DNA from: a virus
Taxonomy: Duplodnaviria; Heunggongvirae; Uroviricota; Caudoviricetes
Strand: one strand, 5' to 3'
DNA: 8,160 bases
Virus record (IMG/VR): IMGVR_UViG_2693429621_000002
Coordinates: 1-8,160 of that record
The notes beneath the pieces are model-generated. The model saw only the letters and a program-made list of their open reading frames with translations, made no database searches and was not told the DNA's origin. This document shows, in pieces, positions 2,839-7,986 of the stretch. The stretch's first letter is position 1. Each line of letters starts with the position of its first letter. The position numbers and the translations under genes are program-made.

Positions 2839-3219
2839 ATGACCGAGCGCATAGAATTTGTTTTACCTTACCCGCCGACGGTGAACACTTACTGGCGTCG
2901 TCGTGGCAGCACATATTTTGTATCAAAAGCCGGGGAGCGTTATCGCCGGGCAGTGGCGCTTATTGTTCGCCAGCAGCGGCTGAAATTAAGCCTGTCCGGA
3001 AGGTTGGCAATAAAAATTATTGCAGAACCACCGGATAAGCGCCGCCGTGACCTGGACAATATTCTGAAAGCGCCGCTGGATGCGCTGACGCATGCGGGGT
3101 TGCTAATGGACGATGAGCAGTTTGATGAAATCAATATCGTTCGTGGTCAGCCAGTATCTGGTGGACGTCTGGGGGTGAAGATTTACCCCATAATGCATGA
3201 AGAGCAGGTCAAAAAATGA
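2839..3219 (+). CDS. rusA: RusA-family Holliday junction resolvase (126 aa)
   Basis: Conserved RusA blocks LPYPPTVNTYWRRRG, DKRRRDLDNILKAPLDALTHAGL and GGRLGVKI resemble E. coli RusA; SD GGAAAG upstream; stop overlaps the next start (ATGA 3216-3219). Confidence 0.85.
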   Translation: MTERIEFVLPYPPTVNTYWRRRGSTYFVSKAGERYRRAVALIVRQQRLKLSLSGRLAIKIIAEPPDKRRRDLDNILKAPLDALTHAGLLMDDEQFDEINIVRGQPVSGGRLGVKIYPIMHEEQVKK

Positions 3220-4043
3220 AACTGGAAGATTTACCGAAATACTACTCCCCAAAATCCCCCGGCCTGACTGATGCATCGGCCTCAACGTCGAAAGATGCGC
3301 TGAGTATCACTGATGTGATGGCCGCGCAGGGCATGACACAGAATCGGGCTGAGATGGGGGTTTCTGCGTTCCTTGGGAAAATGGGCATTAGTATGAATGA
3401 CAGAGAGCGGGCAACAGAATTGCTGACAGAATATGCACTCAGTCGGTGTGATCGCGTGGCGGCGTTAAGAAAACTCCCGGCAGAAATAAAACCGGCAGTG
3501 ATGCGTATTATGGCTTCGTATGCGTTTGAAGATTATGCCCGTAGCGCGGCGAGCAAAAAACAGTGCCCCTGCTGTCACGGAAAAAAATTTATTGAAAGCG
3601 AGGTTTTTACAAACAAGATCCAGTATCCGGATGGTAAGCCGCCGGTATGGGCAAAGTGTACGAAAGGTGTGTATCCGTCTTACTGGGAAGAATGGAAAAA
3701 AGTCAGGGAGGTGGTAAAAGTTGCCTGTCCGGAGTGTGGCGGAAAGGGTGAGGTTTCCACCGCCTGTAAGGATTGCCGTGGGCGTGGTGTCGCCATTCAT
3801 CGTGAAGAGTCGGTAAAACGTGGTATGCCTGTTATCAGAGACTGCCAGCGTTGTGGTGGTCGTGGCTATGAAAGACTACCATCAACGGAGGCATTTAATG
3901 CTATATGCGAGGTGACAAACCAGATAACACGCGCGTCATGGGAAAAAACAGTTAAGAAATTCTATGATGCGCTGGTGACTCGGTTTGATATTGAAGAAGC
4001 ATGGGCTGAGCGGCAGTTAAAAAAGGTAACTAGGTNAGGTTGA
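3216..4043 (+). CDS. Q-type late antiterminator, QuuQ-like, with zinc-finger motifs (about 274 aa)
   Basis: Repeated CxxC motifs (CPCCHGKKF, CPECGGKG...CKDCRGRG, CQRCGGRG); lies immediately upstream of a promoter plus terminator pair typical of PR'/tR'. The 3' end contains an N at 4036; the duplicate copy shows the true C-terminus ...KKVTR. Confidence 0.7.
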   Translation: MKLEDLPKYYSPKSPGLTDASASTSKDALSITDVMAAQGMTQNRAEMGVSAFLGKMGISMNDRERATELLTEYALSRCDRVAALRKLPAEIKPAVMRIMASYAFEDYARSAASKKQCPCCHGKKFIESEVFTNKIQYPDGKPPVWAKCTKGVYPSYWEEWKKVREVVKVACPECGGKGEVSTACKDCRGRGVAIHREESVKRGMPVIRDCQRCGGRGYERLPSTEAFNAICEVTNQITRASWEKTVKKFYDALVTRFDIEEAWAERQLKKVTRXG

Positions 4044-4128
4044 TTTTTCCGGAATCTGTGGTAAATTCGTCATAACTATGGGCGTTTTATGCCTGACGTT
4101 AGAAGAGTTTCTACAACCCGCCGCCGAG
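3629..4128. repeat. copy 1 of duplicated segment (Q 3' end, PR'-like promoter, start of tR' hairpin) ending at the scaffold gap
   Basis: Matches 4150-4651 except for three substitutions (3962 C/T, 3980 T/C, 4076 T/G) and a small indel around the N at 4036. A copy of the promoter sits at about 4040-4067. Confidence 0.9.
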
Positions 4129-4149
4129 NNNNNNNNNNNNNNNNNNNNN
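4129..4149. other. scaffold gap (21 N)
   Basis: Run of N characters read directly. Confidence 0.97.
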
Positions 4150-4558
4150 GGATGGTAAGCCGCCGGTATGGGCAAAGTGTACGAAAGGTGTGTATCCGTC
4201 TTACTGGGAAGAATGGAAAAAAGTCAGGGAGGTGGTAAAAGTTGCCTGTCCGGAGTGTGGCGGAAAGGGTGAGGTTTCCACCGCCTGTAAGGATTGCCGT
4301 GGGCGTGGTGTCGCCATTCATCGTGAAGAGTCGGTAAAACGTGGTATGCCTGTTATCAGAGACTGCCAGCGTTGTGGTGGTCGTGGCTATGAAAGACTAC
4401 CATCAACGGAGGCATTTAATGCTATATGCGAGGTGACAAACCAGATAACACGCGCGTCATGGGAAAAAACAGTTAAGAAATTTTATGATGCGCTGGTGAC
4501 CCGGTTTGATATTGAAGAAGCATGGGCTGAGCGGCAGTTAAAAAAGGTAACTAGGTAA
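4150..4558 (+). pseudogene. duplicated 3' portion of the Q antiterminator ORF (partial, begins at gap edge); probably contig overlap rather than a separate gene
   Basis: In-frame continuation of Q codons ending ...QLKKVTR-TAA at 4556-4558. The ORF track reports only the part from the internal ATG at 4190. Confidence 0.6.
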
Positions 4559-4563
4559 CAAGG

Positions 4564-4591
4564 TTGATTTTTCCGGAATCTGTGGTAAATT
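4564..4591 (+). promoter_or_regulatory. PR'-like late promoter (-35 TTGATT, 16-bp spacer, -10 TAAATT), presumed Q-utilisation region
   Basis: Hexamers read directly, immediately 3' of the Q gene, with a terminator about 60 nt downstream; this is the lambdoid PR'/qut/tR' arrangement. Confidence 0.55.
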
Positions 4592-4638
4592 CGTCATAAC
4601 GATGGGCGTTTTATGCCTGACGTTAGAAGAGTTTCTAC

Positions 4639-4663
4639 AACCCGCCGCCGAGCGGGTTTTTTA
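4639..4663 (+). terminator. tR'-like rho-independent terminator
   Basis: Hairpin AACCCGC-CGCCGA-GCGGGTT followed by TTTTTTAT. Confidence 0.65.
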
Positions 4664-4782: not shown

Positions 4783-4980
4783 ATGCTAAAACAGCAGGAT
4801 ATGACAGAAACCGCCAGAGTGGTGTTTAATGAATTAAGCGTTACCGAACCGGCGACAGTCGGGGAGATAGCGCAGAATACTTACCTTTCACGCGAACGCT
4901 GCCAGTTAATACTGACCCAGCTGGTTATGGCGGGTCTGGCAGACTATCAGTTCGGTTGTTACAGACGCCTTCCGCAGTGA
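4783..4980 (+). CDS. small putative winged-helix/HTH DNA-binding protein (65 aa)
   Basis: SD AAAGGAAAAG 6 nt before ATG; the segment PATVGEIAQNTYLSRERCQLILTQLVMAGLA looks like a helix-turn-helix. An alternative start is ATG 4801. Confidence 0.5.
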   Translation: MLKQQDMTETARVVFNELSVTEPATVGEIAQNTYLSRERCQLILTQLVMAGLADYQFGCYRRLPQ

Positions 4981-4994
4981 AGGCTTTTTTATTT
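4967..4994 (+). terminator. rho-independent terminator overlapping the stop codon of the 4783-4980 ORF
   Basis: Hairpin GCCTTC-CGCAGT-GAAGGC followed by TTTTTTATTT. Confidence 0.5.
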
Positions 4995-5007: not shown

Positions 5008-5038
5008 GGCTGGTGGGTGTTAGGGGCACCCACCAGCC
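5008..5038 (+). promoter_or_regulatory. perfect 12-bp inverted repeat hairpin (GGCTGGTGGGTG-ttagggg-CACCCACCAGCC) upstream of the methyltransferase gene
   Basis: Read directly; not followed by a T-run. A near-palindrome CTGCTTTGCGCAAAAGCAG lies at 5080-5098, about 35 nt before the methyltransferase start. Confidence 0.4.
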
Positions 5039-5130: not shown

Positions 5131-6189
5131 ATGCTTAATACTGTAAAAATATCCAGTTGTGAGTTAATCAACGCCGACTGCCTGGAATTTATCCGGTCGT
5201 TACCCGAAAATTCTGTTGACCTGATAGTCACGGACCCGCCGTACTTTAAAGTGAAGCCTGAGGGCTGGGATAACCAGTGGAAGGGCGACGATGATTACCT
5301 GAAGTGGCTGGACCAGTGTCTGGCGCAGTTCTGGCGGGTGCTGAAACCTGCCGGAAGTCTTTACCTGTTCTGTGGTCATCGCCTGGCATCTGATATCGAA
5401 ATCATGATGCGTGAACGCTTCAGTGTGCTGAACCATATTATCTGGGCGAAGCCGTCCGGACGCTGGAACGGATGCAACAAGGAAAGCCTGCGGGCGTATT
5501 TCCCCGCCACAGAGCGCATTCTGTTCGCGGAACATTATCAGGGGCCGTATCGTCCGAAAGATGCCGGGTATGCGGCGAAGGGCAGTGCACTGAAACAGCA
5601 TGTGATGGCCCCGCTGATTTCTTACTTTCGTGATGCGCGAGCTGCCCTGGGGATAACGGCAAAACAGATTGCAGATGCCACAGGAAAGAAAAACATGGTG
5701 TCGCACTGGTTCAGTGCCGGTCAGTGGCAGTTGCCGAATGAAAGCGATTATCTGAAATTACAGGCGCTGTTTGCCCGGGTGGCAGAAGAGAAGCATCGGC
5801 GTGGTGAACTGGAAAAGCTCCACCACCAGCTGGTGGATACGTATACCTCACTGAACCGGCAGTATGCGGAGCTGCTGAGTGAATATAAACATCTGCGGCG
5901 GTATTTTGGCGTGACGGTGCAGGTGCCGTATACCGATGTGTGGACGCATAAACCGGTGCAGTTCTATCCCGGGAAACATCCGTGCGAAAAACCGGCAGAA
6001 ATGCTGCAGCAGATAATCAGCGCTAGCAGTCGTCCGGGTGACCTGATTGCAGATTTTTTCATGGGGTTGGGTTCGACAGTGAAAGCGGCACTGGCGCTCG
6101 GGCGTCGTGCAATTGGCGTTGAGCTGGAGACTGAACGTTTTGAGCAGACGGTTCGGGAAGTACAGGATTTAGTCAGCCAGAACGGATGA
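5131..6189 (+). CDS. beta-class DNA amino-methyltransferase, probably N6-adenine, orphan (352 aa)
   Basis: N-terminal motif IV LIVTDPPYF and C-terminal motif I DFFMGLGST. This order (IV before I) is the beta-class arrangement, and DPPY favours N6-adenine. No restriction endonuclease ORF is adjacent. Confidence 0.85.
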   Translation: MLNTVKISSCELINADCLEFIRSLPENSVDLIVTDPPYFKVKPEGWDNQWKGDDDYLKWLDQCLAQFWRVLKPAGSLYLFCGHRLASDIEIMMRERFSVLNHIIWAKPSGRWNGCNKESLRAYFPATERILFAEHYQGPYRPKDAGYAAKGSALKQHVMAPLISYFRDARAALGITAKQIADATGKKNMVSHWFSAGQWQLPNESDYLKLQALFARVAEEKHRRGELEKLHHQLVDTYTSLNRQYAELLSEYKHLRRYFGVTVQVPYTDVWTHKPVQFYPGKHPCEKPAEMLQQIISASSRPGDLIADFFMGLGSTVKAALALGRRAIGVELETERFEQTVREVQDLVSQNG

Positions 6190-6229
6190 TATTGAAGAAT
6201 TAATTACGCGTCGTTATTATGCGGCTCCC

Positions 6230-6305
6230 GGCCCTTTAGCTCAGTGGTGAGAGCGAGCGACTCATAATCGCCAGGTCGCTGGTTCAAATCCAGCAAGGGC
6301 CACCA
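6230..6305 (+). tRNA. ileZ: tRNA-Ile2 (anticodon CAU, lysidine type; ileX/ileZ-like), 76 nt with encoded CCA
   Basis: Manual cloverleaf: acceptor GGCCCTT/AAGGGCC, D-arm GCTC-AGTGGTGA-GAGC, anticodon loop CTCATAA, T-loop TTCAAAT. Closely resembles my recollection of E. coli ileX. Confidence 0.85.
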
Positions 6306-6312
6306 TCACATA

Positions 6313-6389
6313 CCGCCATTAGCTCATCAGGAAAGAGCGCCAGCCTTCGAAGCTGGCTGCGCGGGGTTCAAGTCCCCGATGGCGGTCCA
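6313..6389 (+). tRNA. argN: tRNA-Arg (anticodon UCG), 77 nt with encoded CCA
   Basis: Acceptor CCGCCAT/ATGGCGG, anticodon stem CCAGC/GCTGG, loop CTTCGAA, T-arm CGGGG-TTCAAGT-CCCCG, discriminator T, CCA. Confidence 0.8.
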
Positions 6390-6402: not shown

Positions 6403-6479
6403 GCGTTGTTAGCTCAGCCGGACAGAGCAATTGCCTTCTAAGCAATCGGTCACTGGTTCGAATCCAGTACAGCGCGCCA
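6403..6479 (+). tRNA. argO: tRNA-Arg (anticodon UCU), 77 nt with encoded CCA
   Basis: Acceptor GCGTTGT/ACAGCGC (one G-U pair), anticodon stem ATTGC/GCAAT, loop CTTCTAA, T-loop TTCGAAT, discriminator G, CCA. Confidence 0.85.
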
Positions 6480-6616
6480 TATTCATTCTTCCAGATTCCT
6501 TCCGGCAGAGCCTTATACTGAAATATACCTGGCTCAGGATATTGTTGAAAATATTTTATGTTTGTCAAAAATAAAAGTTCTGTTAAGTATTGATTGAGTG
6601 TTTGTTATACGGTCTA

Positions 6617-6943
6617 ATGGTTTTTTCAGCATTAAATATTTATCATTCATATGGTGTGGGTAGAGTGAATATTGATGAGGCGTCGGGGTGTTTCATCCTT
6701 AGGCAGCGTATTGATATAGTCAATGCAGCACGAGCAAAGGCCTTCAGCCGTTTGACAGTTTTGTTCTGTACTCCTGATCGTCTTTCGGGAAGAGACGTTA
6801 TTATTCTGAATAGTGATGCTATACAGAGGGTTTGCGATGAGTTCATGGTTGCTAATTCAGAATTATTTGCTCTTGTTCAGGAGTACAACAGAATAGCCAG
6901 GACCTGTGGTATGGATGAACTTCGGATTACTCATCTGGGGTAG
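6617..6943 (+). CDS. hypothetical cargo protein (108 aa from first ATG; ORF track extends to TTG at 6590)
   Basis: Open frame of more than 100 codons in an AT-rich region; no clear SD. Arg codons are 6/11 AGA/AGG plus one CGA, and Ile includes 3 ATA, matching the adjacent tRNAs. No recognisable domain. Confidence 0.4.
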   Translation: MVFSALNIYHSYGVGRVNIDEASGCFILRQRIDIVNAARAKAFSRLTVLFCTPDRLSGRDVIILNSDAIQRVCDEFMVANSELFALVQEYNRIARTCGMDELRITHLG

Positions 6944-7110: not shown

Positions 7111-7335
7111 CCGGGTATCAGTTAGCGGGAGAAATTTTTAAATACTTCACAATTCAGGCGGTTGACTGTTGTCTGGTTTGCGGGGAGTTTGTTAAAAGAA
7201 ACTGGCATGGTGAATCCCCCTGTGCGGAGGGGCAATCAGCGAGTAGGTATATGGGATAATCGCGGATTCAGGTGCTGGTACTGAATTCACCGGGAGGCAC
7301 CCGGCACCATGCAATGGCACATAGCGCCACTCTCC

Positions 7336-7370
7336 AGCCCCTCTCCGGAGGGGCTGTTTATATTGATTTT
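7336..7370 (+). terminator. strong rho-independent terminator, + orientation
   Basis: Perfect 8-bp stem AGCCCCTC-tccg-GAGGGGCT followed by GTTTATATTGATTTT. Confidence 0.6.
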
Positions 7371-7387
7371 GTCAGATGTGAGTAAAC

Positions 7388-7421
7388 TCCTTATGGACTT
7401 TGTTGTTTTAGTCCATAAGGA
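7388..7421. promoter_or_regulatory. perfect 12-bp inverted repeat (TCCTTATGGACT-ttgttgtttt-AGTCCATAAGGA) overlapping the stop codon of the minus-strand ORF
   Basis: Read directly; on the minus-strand mRNA the last 10 codons and the stop lie inside this hairpin. Confidence 0.4.
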
Positions 7422-7726
7422 CATATTTGCAGAGTGCAACGGTTATTAAAGCATTCATTCAATACGTTATCTGTATTTGTAGGGCATTCCTGGCTATTTT
7501 TGATTGAATTCCAGAATGTTTTATTGAATGGTACTACGTTGTAAATGGTTACAGGTAGCACTTTGTTATTGAGCATGATGCCTGTGTGAGTCAGTGTAAA
7601 TATACTTTCAGGAGGTAAGAAAGCATCCGATTGATACCAGATTATTAATTTTATTTTACTCCATATGACTGAAAAAGATATTCCGCATGATGGCTGGATA
7701 ACTGTATCAATCACAATCCACTTCAT
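7391..7726 (-). CDS. hypothetical cargo protein (111 aa), antisense to the phage late operon, Cys-containing C-terminus
   Basis: ATG at 7726 with SD AAGGA 7 nt upstream; 6 of 13 Ile codons are the rare ATA (read by the adjacent tRNA-Ile2). C-terminal [25 protein letters not shown] has four Cys. No recognisable domain. Confidence 0.6.
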
Positions 7727-7986
7727 TTAGTTTCCTTGTTTATGCCTTGCTGGTGATGTTCTGAAAAGTATAAATGATATTTTTGAATGTAAACCATAGA
7801 GCAGAATTATTTTTCTGATGTTGTTTATTGTTTATTTAAATGCAGGGTGGTTTATATCTCGTCTTGTAGTTTATCCATGCATATCTGCTTGATAATCAGG
7901 TTTTTATTTAAGGTATGGTTTTGTGTTTTTTCTGTATTACATGTCAGGTATTTTAAAGAATTATTTTTCAGATGGTGGAAAGAACC

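Follow-up and report, generated by a model that had tools for sequence, protein, structure and literature searches.

The minus-strand open reading frame at positions 7391–7726 of the window (the whole 8,160-nt stretch of DNA that was analysed) is very probably iraL, the gene of an RssB anti-adaptor, carried by a lambdoid prophage as a lysogenic conversion gene. The coding sequence was identical at 334 of 336 nucleotides (99.4%) to iraL of Escherichia coli CFT073 (c1429/C_RS06710, WP_000871291.1; Hryckowian 2014, PMC4045071), and the 133 nt upstream matched at 131 positions (98.5%). There, iraL is defined by at least 95% nucleotide identity to CFT073 over the coding sequence and at least 96% over the promoter region; the window copy exceeds both values and lies in a lambdoid prophage, not beside e14. 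The same source places CFT073 iraL on a "potB genomic island", and C_RS06710 was located in a CFT073 lambdoid prophage inserted beside potB/potC. Together with a match to the published 5′-RACE product (described below), these identities indicate that the frame is iraL and not an orphan. The initial annotation had recognised no family for it; NCBIfam model NF007393.0 ("anti-adapter protein IraM") matched residues 1–110 of 111 with 162 bits (cutoff 121; E = 4.7e-48). When the region was compared by megablast with complete E. coli genomes, 2781 records matched, and among the matches listed, all 20 records covering the region annotated the frame as "anti-adapter protein IraM". The gene is thus already known: iraL was described in 2014, and PGAP annotates it under the IraM name.

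At the protein level, 110 of 111 residues were identical to CFT073 IraL, the coding sequences differing by L74S and one synonymous change. Residue 74 sits in a helix beside interface residue 75, and this difference was counted against full equivalence of the two proteins. The S74 allele is that of Shigella sonnei 53G, and the exact protein was indexed in 4016 assembly-collection blocks, representing thousands of contigs. From this near identity, the allele in the window probably acts like CFT073 IraL. Identity to K-12 IraM was 61% over 107 aa (PMC4045071 gives 58.9% between IraL and IraM), and phmmer against the PDB matched the IraM fragment 8twd_A (E = 6.3e-31). Homology to a structural phage protein, which had been named as a result that would argue against an accessory gene, was not what these searches returned. 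An hmmscan of the frame against Pfam-A gave only a sub-threshold match to Nairovirus_NSm, PF11183 (PmrD) being absent even at E ≤ 10; precomputed annotation lists PF11183 for all the homologues.

The frame reads from ATG to TAA and encodes 111 aa. No plus-strand ORF of at least 40 aa spanned 7391–7726, and only a 46-aa ORF at 7309–7449 clipped the end of iraL. Direct reading of the minus strand located the Shine–Dalgarno sequence AAGGA at 7733–7737, 6 nt before the start codon, in agreement with the good ribosome-binding site proposed earlier. The codon bias reported in the initial annotation was also reproduced: of 13 Ile codons, six were ATA (46%), four ATC and three ATT. The GC content was 34.5% in the ORF vs. 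48.4% in the whole window. This low-GC, ATA-rich composition would reflect a foreign, horizontally acquired origin. The protein can be divided into a PmrD-like β-barrel domain (residues 1–78) and a tail (79–111). It contains five cysteines, namely C14 in the barrel and C81, C92, C97 and C102 within the last 31 residues, the tail motif being C81-x10-C92-x4-C97-x4-C102-P-Y-G.

Remote homology searches and structure prediction, both proposed in the initial annotation as checks, converged on the IraM family and the IraM fold. The final AF2 model, built on an alignment of 39 family sequences from the representative search, had an overall pLDDT of 85, with values of 89–97 over residues 1–80 and 57–65 over the Cys tail. 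Its best Foldseek match was IraM (8twd_A; TM 0.91, rmsd 1.2 Å, 78 columns), and the next matches were PmrD structures (4hn7). A first model from 16 close homologues (pLDDT 60, weak Foldseek match) was replaced by the 39-sequence run. The IraM residues contacting RssB, grouped into interface clusters I–III (PMC10844676), were compared with IraL by alignment. Cluster I (I4, I6, W22, K26, I42) was identical at all five positions. In cluster II, C14, F18 and W30 were identical (3/5), and the two replacements, T13S and L75I, were conservative. In cluster III, I61 and Y62 were identical (2/4), whereas H63 and I64 of IraM correspond to N63 and V64 in IraL.

IraL therefore shares with K-12 IraM (YcgW; 8TWD, PMC10844676) the PmrD-like barrel plus helix and the cluster I residues, as well as the same four tail cysteines with the ICPYG motif. 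The two genes differ in their settings. K-12 IraM is an RssB anti-adaptor induced through PhoPQ at low Mg2+, and its promoter and inducing signal differ from those of IraL; its locus lies just outside the cryptic prophage e14, whereas iraL lies in a lambdoid prophage. K-12 iraM is also four codons shorter and has its own canonical terminator, in contrast to the 12-bp hairpin of iraL. In two-hybrid assays, IraM contacted both RssB domains and CFT073 IraL only the N-terminal receiver domain (PMC4045071). Because of this difference in domain contacts, the IraM co-crystal may be an inexact guide to IraL.

Similar two-part architecture, together with W72, C81, C97 and C102, was found in RssC of Salmonella and in the wider enterobacterial "IraM" family, whose members in Citrobacter, Enterobacter, Cronobacter, Intestinirhabdus, Dryocola and Franconibacter were 20%–41% identical to the window protein. 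PMC4045071 gives rssC as approximately 49% identical to iraL and confined to Salmonella. PmrD (4HN7, 2JSO, 2RQX) shares the fold over residues 1–80 (TM 0.70–0.73, Foldseek probability 1.0), and proteins of the IraM/IraL type, like PmrD, bind a response-regulator receiver domain (PMC10844676). However, PmrD is a protein of approximately 85 aa without a Cys4 tail and is 14%–20% identical to IraL. Its target also differs: PmrD protects phospho-PmrA from dephosphorylation, whereas the target of IraL is RssB, from which substrate delivery is blocked. With its additional Cys4 tail and RssB as its target, IraL is better placed in a sister family of PmrD than in the PmrD family itself. IraP and IraD are likewise small, stress-induced proteins that bind RssB and stabilise σS, but they lack sequence similarity to IraM and IraL and have other binding modes (PMC4045071). 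Their resemblance to IraL is thus one of function and not of ancestry.

The mechanism expected for the window protein follows the characterised homologues. In CFT073, IraL raises the level and stability of σS in exponential phase and binds RssB, as shown by immunoblot, two-hybrid and pull-down assays; a deletion phenotype and a mapped mRNA 5′ end are also described (PMC4045071). In IraM, the PmrD-like barrel (1–78) spans the two domains of RssB, reshapes the helical linker and covers the 4-5-5 face of RssB that is needed for σS (PMC10844676). By analogy, the IraL barrel (residues 1–78) would bind the response-regulator-like adaptor RssB and occlude the α4-β5-α5 face of its receiver domain. RssB blocked in this way would be unable to hand RpoS (σS) over to the ClpXP protease, and σS would consequently accumulate even in exponential phase, raising the general stress regulon.

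Evidence for independent expression comes from the upstream region. According to PMC4045071, the CFT073 iraL 5′-RACE product starts ACATCACCAGCAAGGCATAAACAAGGAAACCA. This sequence lies directly upstream of C_RS06710 and was found in the window from 7759 with one substitution, which places the putative transcription start at 7759 on the minus strand, with a 33-nt 5′ UTR. By-eye reading upstream of the mapped start suggested a putative σ70-type promoter (7767–7793, minus strand), consisting of a −35-like TTTACA at 7788–7793 and, after a 15-nt spacer, a −10 element TATACT at 7767–7772 that precedes the start by 7 nt. [quoted passage not shown] As K-12 iraM is PhoP-dependent, a PhoP box was also considered; reading by eye, as opposed to a statistical test, showed only a single GGTTTA half-site over the −35 region. 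Changes in the CFT073 IraL transcript or protein are reported in PMC7157518 and PMC12890032, the transcript being regulated by temperature and by Fur status. The promoter, 5′ UTR and stop-codon hairpin are shared with CFT073, where the gene has its own σ70-type promoter and a 5′-RACE start, and the earlier view of the frame as an independently expressed moron was well founded. By homology, iraL in a lysogen would be transcribed from its own promoter without depending on the Q-dependent late operon, which is silent in that state and to which iraL is antisense. On induction, late transcription antiterminated by Q would cross iraL in the antisense direction.

The window corresponds to the nin-to-late region of a lambdoid prophage. 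The gene order was sok/hok, DUF968, RusA, antiterminator Q, a DNA methylase and three tRNAs, followed by a 117-aa ORF of unknown function, DUF3927, an STnc100 sRNA, iraL on the opposite strand and DUF1737. The same order occurred in CFT073, 042 and phage vB_EcoS-640R1, namely hok, DUF968, RusA, Q, tRNAs, DUF3927, antisense iraL, DUF1737 and holin, after which came lysozyme and Rz. The prophage position and orientation, between Q/tRNAs and DUF1737/holin, are therefore those of CFT073 iraL, although a DNA methylase separates Q from the tRNAs in the window prophage and IS200 occupies that site in CFT073. Since iraL lies between Q and the tRNAs on one side and DUF1737 and the lysis genes on the other, its description in the initial annotation as a minus-strand gene inside a plus-strand late region was correct. 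The window is a gapped scaffold with a duplication, which bears on the integrity of the prophage and the state of Q and was counted against the preferred explanation. Intact iraL was widespread: among 5426 complete E. coli genomes, it was present in 1446 (about 27%), in up to three copies each, and intact at ≥ 90% identity in 1440, everywhere annotated as IraM. Four deposited phage genomes also carried it, with 98% identity. Given the 2014 description, the PGAP annotation and this frequency in E. coli, the gene itself adds nothing new.

The prophage tRNA genes may bear on the codon usage of iraL. The gene called tRNA-Met(CAT) at 6230–6305 was identical at 76 of 76 positions to a gene annotated by PGAP as tRNA-Ile in CFT073 and 042, and hence would be of the tRNA-Ile2 type. 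A tRNA-Ile2 with a CAU anticodon reads AUA once it is lysidine-modified. The prophage would then carry the decoder of the commonest Ile codon in iraL, and this tRNA may help to decode the ATA-rich gene.

A perfect 12-bp inverted repeat at 7388–7421 (minus strand), reported in the initial annotation, was confirmed; it takes in the iraL stop codon together with the 9 1/3 codons before it, with stem arms TCCTTATGGACT and AGTCCATAAGGA and a 10-nt loop. The window carries two perfect 12-bp repeats, the other at 5008–5038; 300 block shuffles gave an expectation of 0.01 such repeats (loop ≤ 20 nt) per window. The RNA of 7388–7421 folded at −17.5 kcal/mol (z = −6.3), and none of 200 dinucleotide shuffles folded as well, so the repeat exceeds chance. 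This stability raised the question of a functional intrinsic terminator or an essential 3′-end stabiliser of the iraL mRNA. Consistent with such a role, the hairpin was unchanged in CFT073, 042, phage 640R1 and five chromosomal loci with the exact allele, among them that of S. sonnei 53G, and was perfect in all nine copies of the iraL lineage examined; a scan of the iraL strand found no canonical terminator, the only nearby terminator-like site being on the plus strand, whereas K-12 iraM has one approximately 70 nt downstream. However, because the copies keeping the hairpin were at least 98% identical overall, its preservation carries little information. The stem is AU-rich (GC pairs at 5 of 12) and is followed on the iraL strand by GUUUACUCAC, without a U-tract; the terminator scan did not call it, and ribosomes must melt it while reading the last iraL codons. 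In relatives with the same 111-codon frame at 88% and 75% identity, only 7 and 9 of the 12 positions, respectively, could pair; the changes were one-sided or mismatches, with no compensatory double change and thus no covariation supporting the hairpin in these diverged relatives. The reading frames of the Stx2c-phage paralogue and of K-12 iraM are four codons shorter at the 3′ end, and neither has the 12-bp hairpin. The missing U-tract and the uncompensated decay in the 88% and 75% relatives make the terminator role suggested in the initial annotation, or an essential stabilising one, unlikely. Among the sequences compared, the hairpin is confined to this iraL lineage. The extra QQSP codons appear to result from read-through once the ancestral stop had been lost (AAA TAA vs. 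AAA CAA).

The iraL 3′ end is instead most likely bounded by a GC-rich 9-bp hairpin with a T-run at 7335–7356 (plus strand), which was called in the terminator scan and is located 35 nt beyond the iraL stop. This hairpin, an intrinsic terminator belonging to an STnc100-like sRNA, folded at −20.3 kcal/mol on the plus strand and −19.0 kcal/mol on the minus strand. It forms the terminal stem of an STnc100-family prophage sRNA gene at 7176–7365 (plus strand; Rfam RF02076, 132.4 bits against a gathering threshold of 47, full length 1–206) and was kept downstream of every phage-borne iraL/iraM paralogue examined. The sRNA gene converges on iraL, with approximately 25 nt between its 3′ end and the stop codon of iraL.

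It was also considered whether the product might be a toxin, or a moron acting in phage exclusion or defence, and not a regulator of host proteolysis. The location of iraL invites this reading, as it is the classic lambdoid moron slot that carries stx in Shiga-toxin phages, and so does the foreign composition; a full-length match to PHROGs phrog_4407, which is listed as unknown function, is compatible with it. However, PADLOC gave no match for the window protein at E ≤ 1, the fold and interface residues are those of IraM, and the 99%-identical IraL, once cloned and expressed, stabilised σS via RssB, with no toxicity reported in the available part of PMC4045071. The toxicity or exclusion role raised in the initial annotation is accordingly very improbable, the function of IraL being RssB binding and RpoS stabilisation. 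Least credible of all is a decaying or silent remnant of a defective prophage, or a chance or pseudogenised frame without present function: the surrounding prophages are often degraded, with pseudogenes flanking iraL in CFT073 and 042, IS elements flanking exact-allele loci such as that of S. sonnei 53G and the window itself being a gapped scaffold, but the frame is full length and intact in 1440 complete genomes, the promoter and Shine–Dalgarno sequence are conserved, W72 and the four cysteines are conserved family-wide across 39 lineages, and in CFT073 the transcript responds to temperature and Fur status, has a mapped 5′ end and is associated with a deletion phenotype (PMC4045071).

A profile search of 1.84 billion representatives returned 97 relatives, of which 48 had E ≤ 1e-10; sequences from Salmonella salamae, Citrobacter, Enterobacter, Cronobacter, Intestinirhabdus, Dryocola and Franconibacter were among them. 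When 39 full-length family representatives (20%–62% identity) were aligned, the only invariant columns were W72, C81, C97 and C102, and C92 and P103 were conserved at 97%; the barrel cysteine C14 was usually Thr. The family tail, C-x10-C-x4-C-x4-C-P-Y-G, was present in the window protein. The remark in the initial annotation that the four-Cys C-terminus may matter is strengthened by the invariance or near invariance of these residues in the 39 representatives. In the IraM structure, residues 79–107 were removed because the tail was proteolytically unstable, and the tail was called less conserved and flexible (PMC10844676). The four tail cysteines thus rank with the best-conserved positions in the family, yet they lie in the portion missing from its only crystal structure. 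A literature search on IraM with zinc or cysteine found no statement on the tail cysteines or on metal binding. A reasonable interpretation is that the tail would form a structural Zn(Cys)4 knuckle; at a pLDDT of 57–65, the AF2 prediction neither supports nor refutes such a knuckle.

The knuckle, if zinc- or redox-sensitive, may control the stability or activity of the anti-adaptor, in which case σS stabilisation by IraL would respond to metal or oxidative status. The placement of iraL, antisense to the late operon, with a convergent sRNA and a hairpin at the junction, could constitute a prophage "stress-tuning" module that late transcription switches off at induction. IraM-family paralogues, 74%–75% identical, were observed in the corresponding prophage slot, directly downstream of stx2B in antisense orientation in Stx2c phage 1717 and three E. 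coli contigs. A literature search on IraM and Stx2 phages found no paper naming IraM in its title or abstract, and only one or two passing mentions in each. If these paralogues act in the same way, they would couple toxin phages to σS control. Taken jointly, the zinc/redox Cys4 knuckle, the tuning module formed by antisense placement, sRNA and hairpin, and the σS coupling of stx2-adjacent paralogues make up a speculative proposal that we consider doubtful as a whole.

With this assignment, a frame that looked like an orphan becomes a known prophage gene for manipulating the host, which raises the host's general stress response by blocking RpoS proteolysis. It also points to an annotation gap: phrog_4407 is still listed without a function, many phage records carry iraL as unknown or unannotated, and most Stx2c phage records leave the stx2-adjacent paralogue unannotated. 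The conserved tail cysteines outside the solved IraM structure raise a testable structural question, and iraL is relevant to the fitness of uropathogenic E. coli and Shigella.

Homologues of the iraL product, the 111-aa anti-adaptor encoded on the minus strand (7391-7726), were found beside stx2. In the Stx2c phage 1717 (L004), an IraM-family paralogue at 6001-6324 was antisense to stx2B, as was the paralogue at 3206-3541 of the E. coli contig L007 and likewise those in the contigs L008 and L009. These four stx2-side paralogues shared 74-75% identity with IraL of the window, and each was located directly 3' of stx2B, with a nanS-p-like esterase on the far side. Across 41 Stx2/Stx2c phage records, the IraM-family match was mostly without annotation or labelled 'hypothetical', and in the five papers found by a literature search combining IraM, Stx2 and phage, no title or abstract contained IraM. 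PF11183 (PmrD) was not returned by a Pfam hmmscan of IraL, even at E <= 10, and was given for all homologues in precomputed annotation; phrog_4407 (PHROGs) matched IraL from end to end and consists of IraL/IraM proteins, yet its label in PHROGs is 'unknown function'.

The gene convergent with iraL was a full-length prophage sRNA of the STnc100 family (7176-7365, plus strand; 132 bits to Rfam RF02076, for which the gathering score is 47), and only 35 nt separated the iraL stop codon from the STnc100 terminator hairpin (7335-7356). A relation between STnc100 and the PasD sRNAs of Stx-phage origin was drawn in a 2026 preprint. Three prophage tRNA genes were also found on the plus strand (6230-6305, 6313-6389 and 6403-6479), two of which were tRNA-Arg(TCG) and tRNA-Arg(TCT). 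The other was called tRNA-Met(CAT) by ARAGORN; since it is identical at 76/76 positions to the tRNA annotated by PGAP as tRNA-Ile in E. coli CFT073 and 042, it would be of the AUA-reading Ile2 type. This gene was 1.1 kb from iraL, in which ATA is the commonest Ile codon. Directly 3' of the tRNA-Arg(TCT) gene was a 117-aa ORF (6590-6943, plus strand; phrog_2873) with no match in Pfam, in which AGA/AGG accounted for 6 of the 11 Arg codons. With a GC content of 41%, this ORF is a further low-GC accessory gene sharing the slot of iraL.

Further upstream, a plus-strand hok/sok type I toxin-antitoxin locus (877-1052 and 990-1202) was supported by Rfam (sok, 112 bits) and by a Pfam HOK_GEF match to a 70-aa ORF, the 3' part of which corresponds to the 51-codon hokD annotated here in CFT073 and 042. 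Ambiguous bases were present at 4036 (a single N) and 4129-4149 (a run of 21 Ns), and the run was flanked by a direct duplication of ca. 500 bp (3629-4128 vs. 4150-4652), in which identity was 100% over 300 nt and 99% over 92 nt. Because of the Ns and this duplication, two versions of the antiterminator gene Q were present, one (3216-4043) with an ambiguous base close to the 3' end and a second (4190-4558) that was only partial. The N run and duplication look like a draft-assembly scaffolding artefact rather than biology. A strong terminator-like plus-strand hairpin with a T-run (4639-4658), ca. 80 nt past the stop codon of Q, occupied the position at which lambdoid phages would be expected to have tR', the terminator of a short pR' leader transcript. 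Besides the repeat at the iraL stop codon, the window contained just one perfect inverted repeat of 12 bp (5008-5038; GGCTGGTGGGTG...CACCCACCAGCC, loop of 7), which was flanked by the methylase gene and a 65-aa ORF (4783-4980) followed by a terminator-like site of its own (4967-4984).

The tail of IraL (residues 79-111; 7391-7489, minus strand) was examined in an alignment of 39 family representatives from several enterobacterial genera (20-62% identity). Over the whole alignment, only W72, C81, C97 and C102 were invariant, and C92 and P103 were 97% conserved. In the crystal structure of IraM-RssB, the tail was truncated and was described as less conserved (PMC10844676). It is possible that the IraL tail forms a Zn(Cys)4 knuckle.
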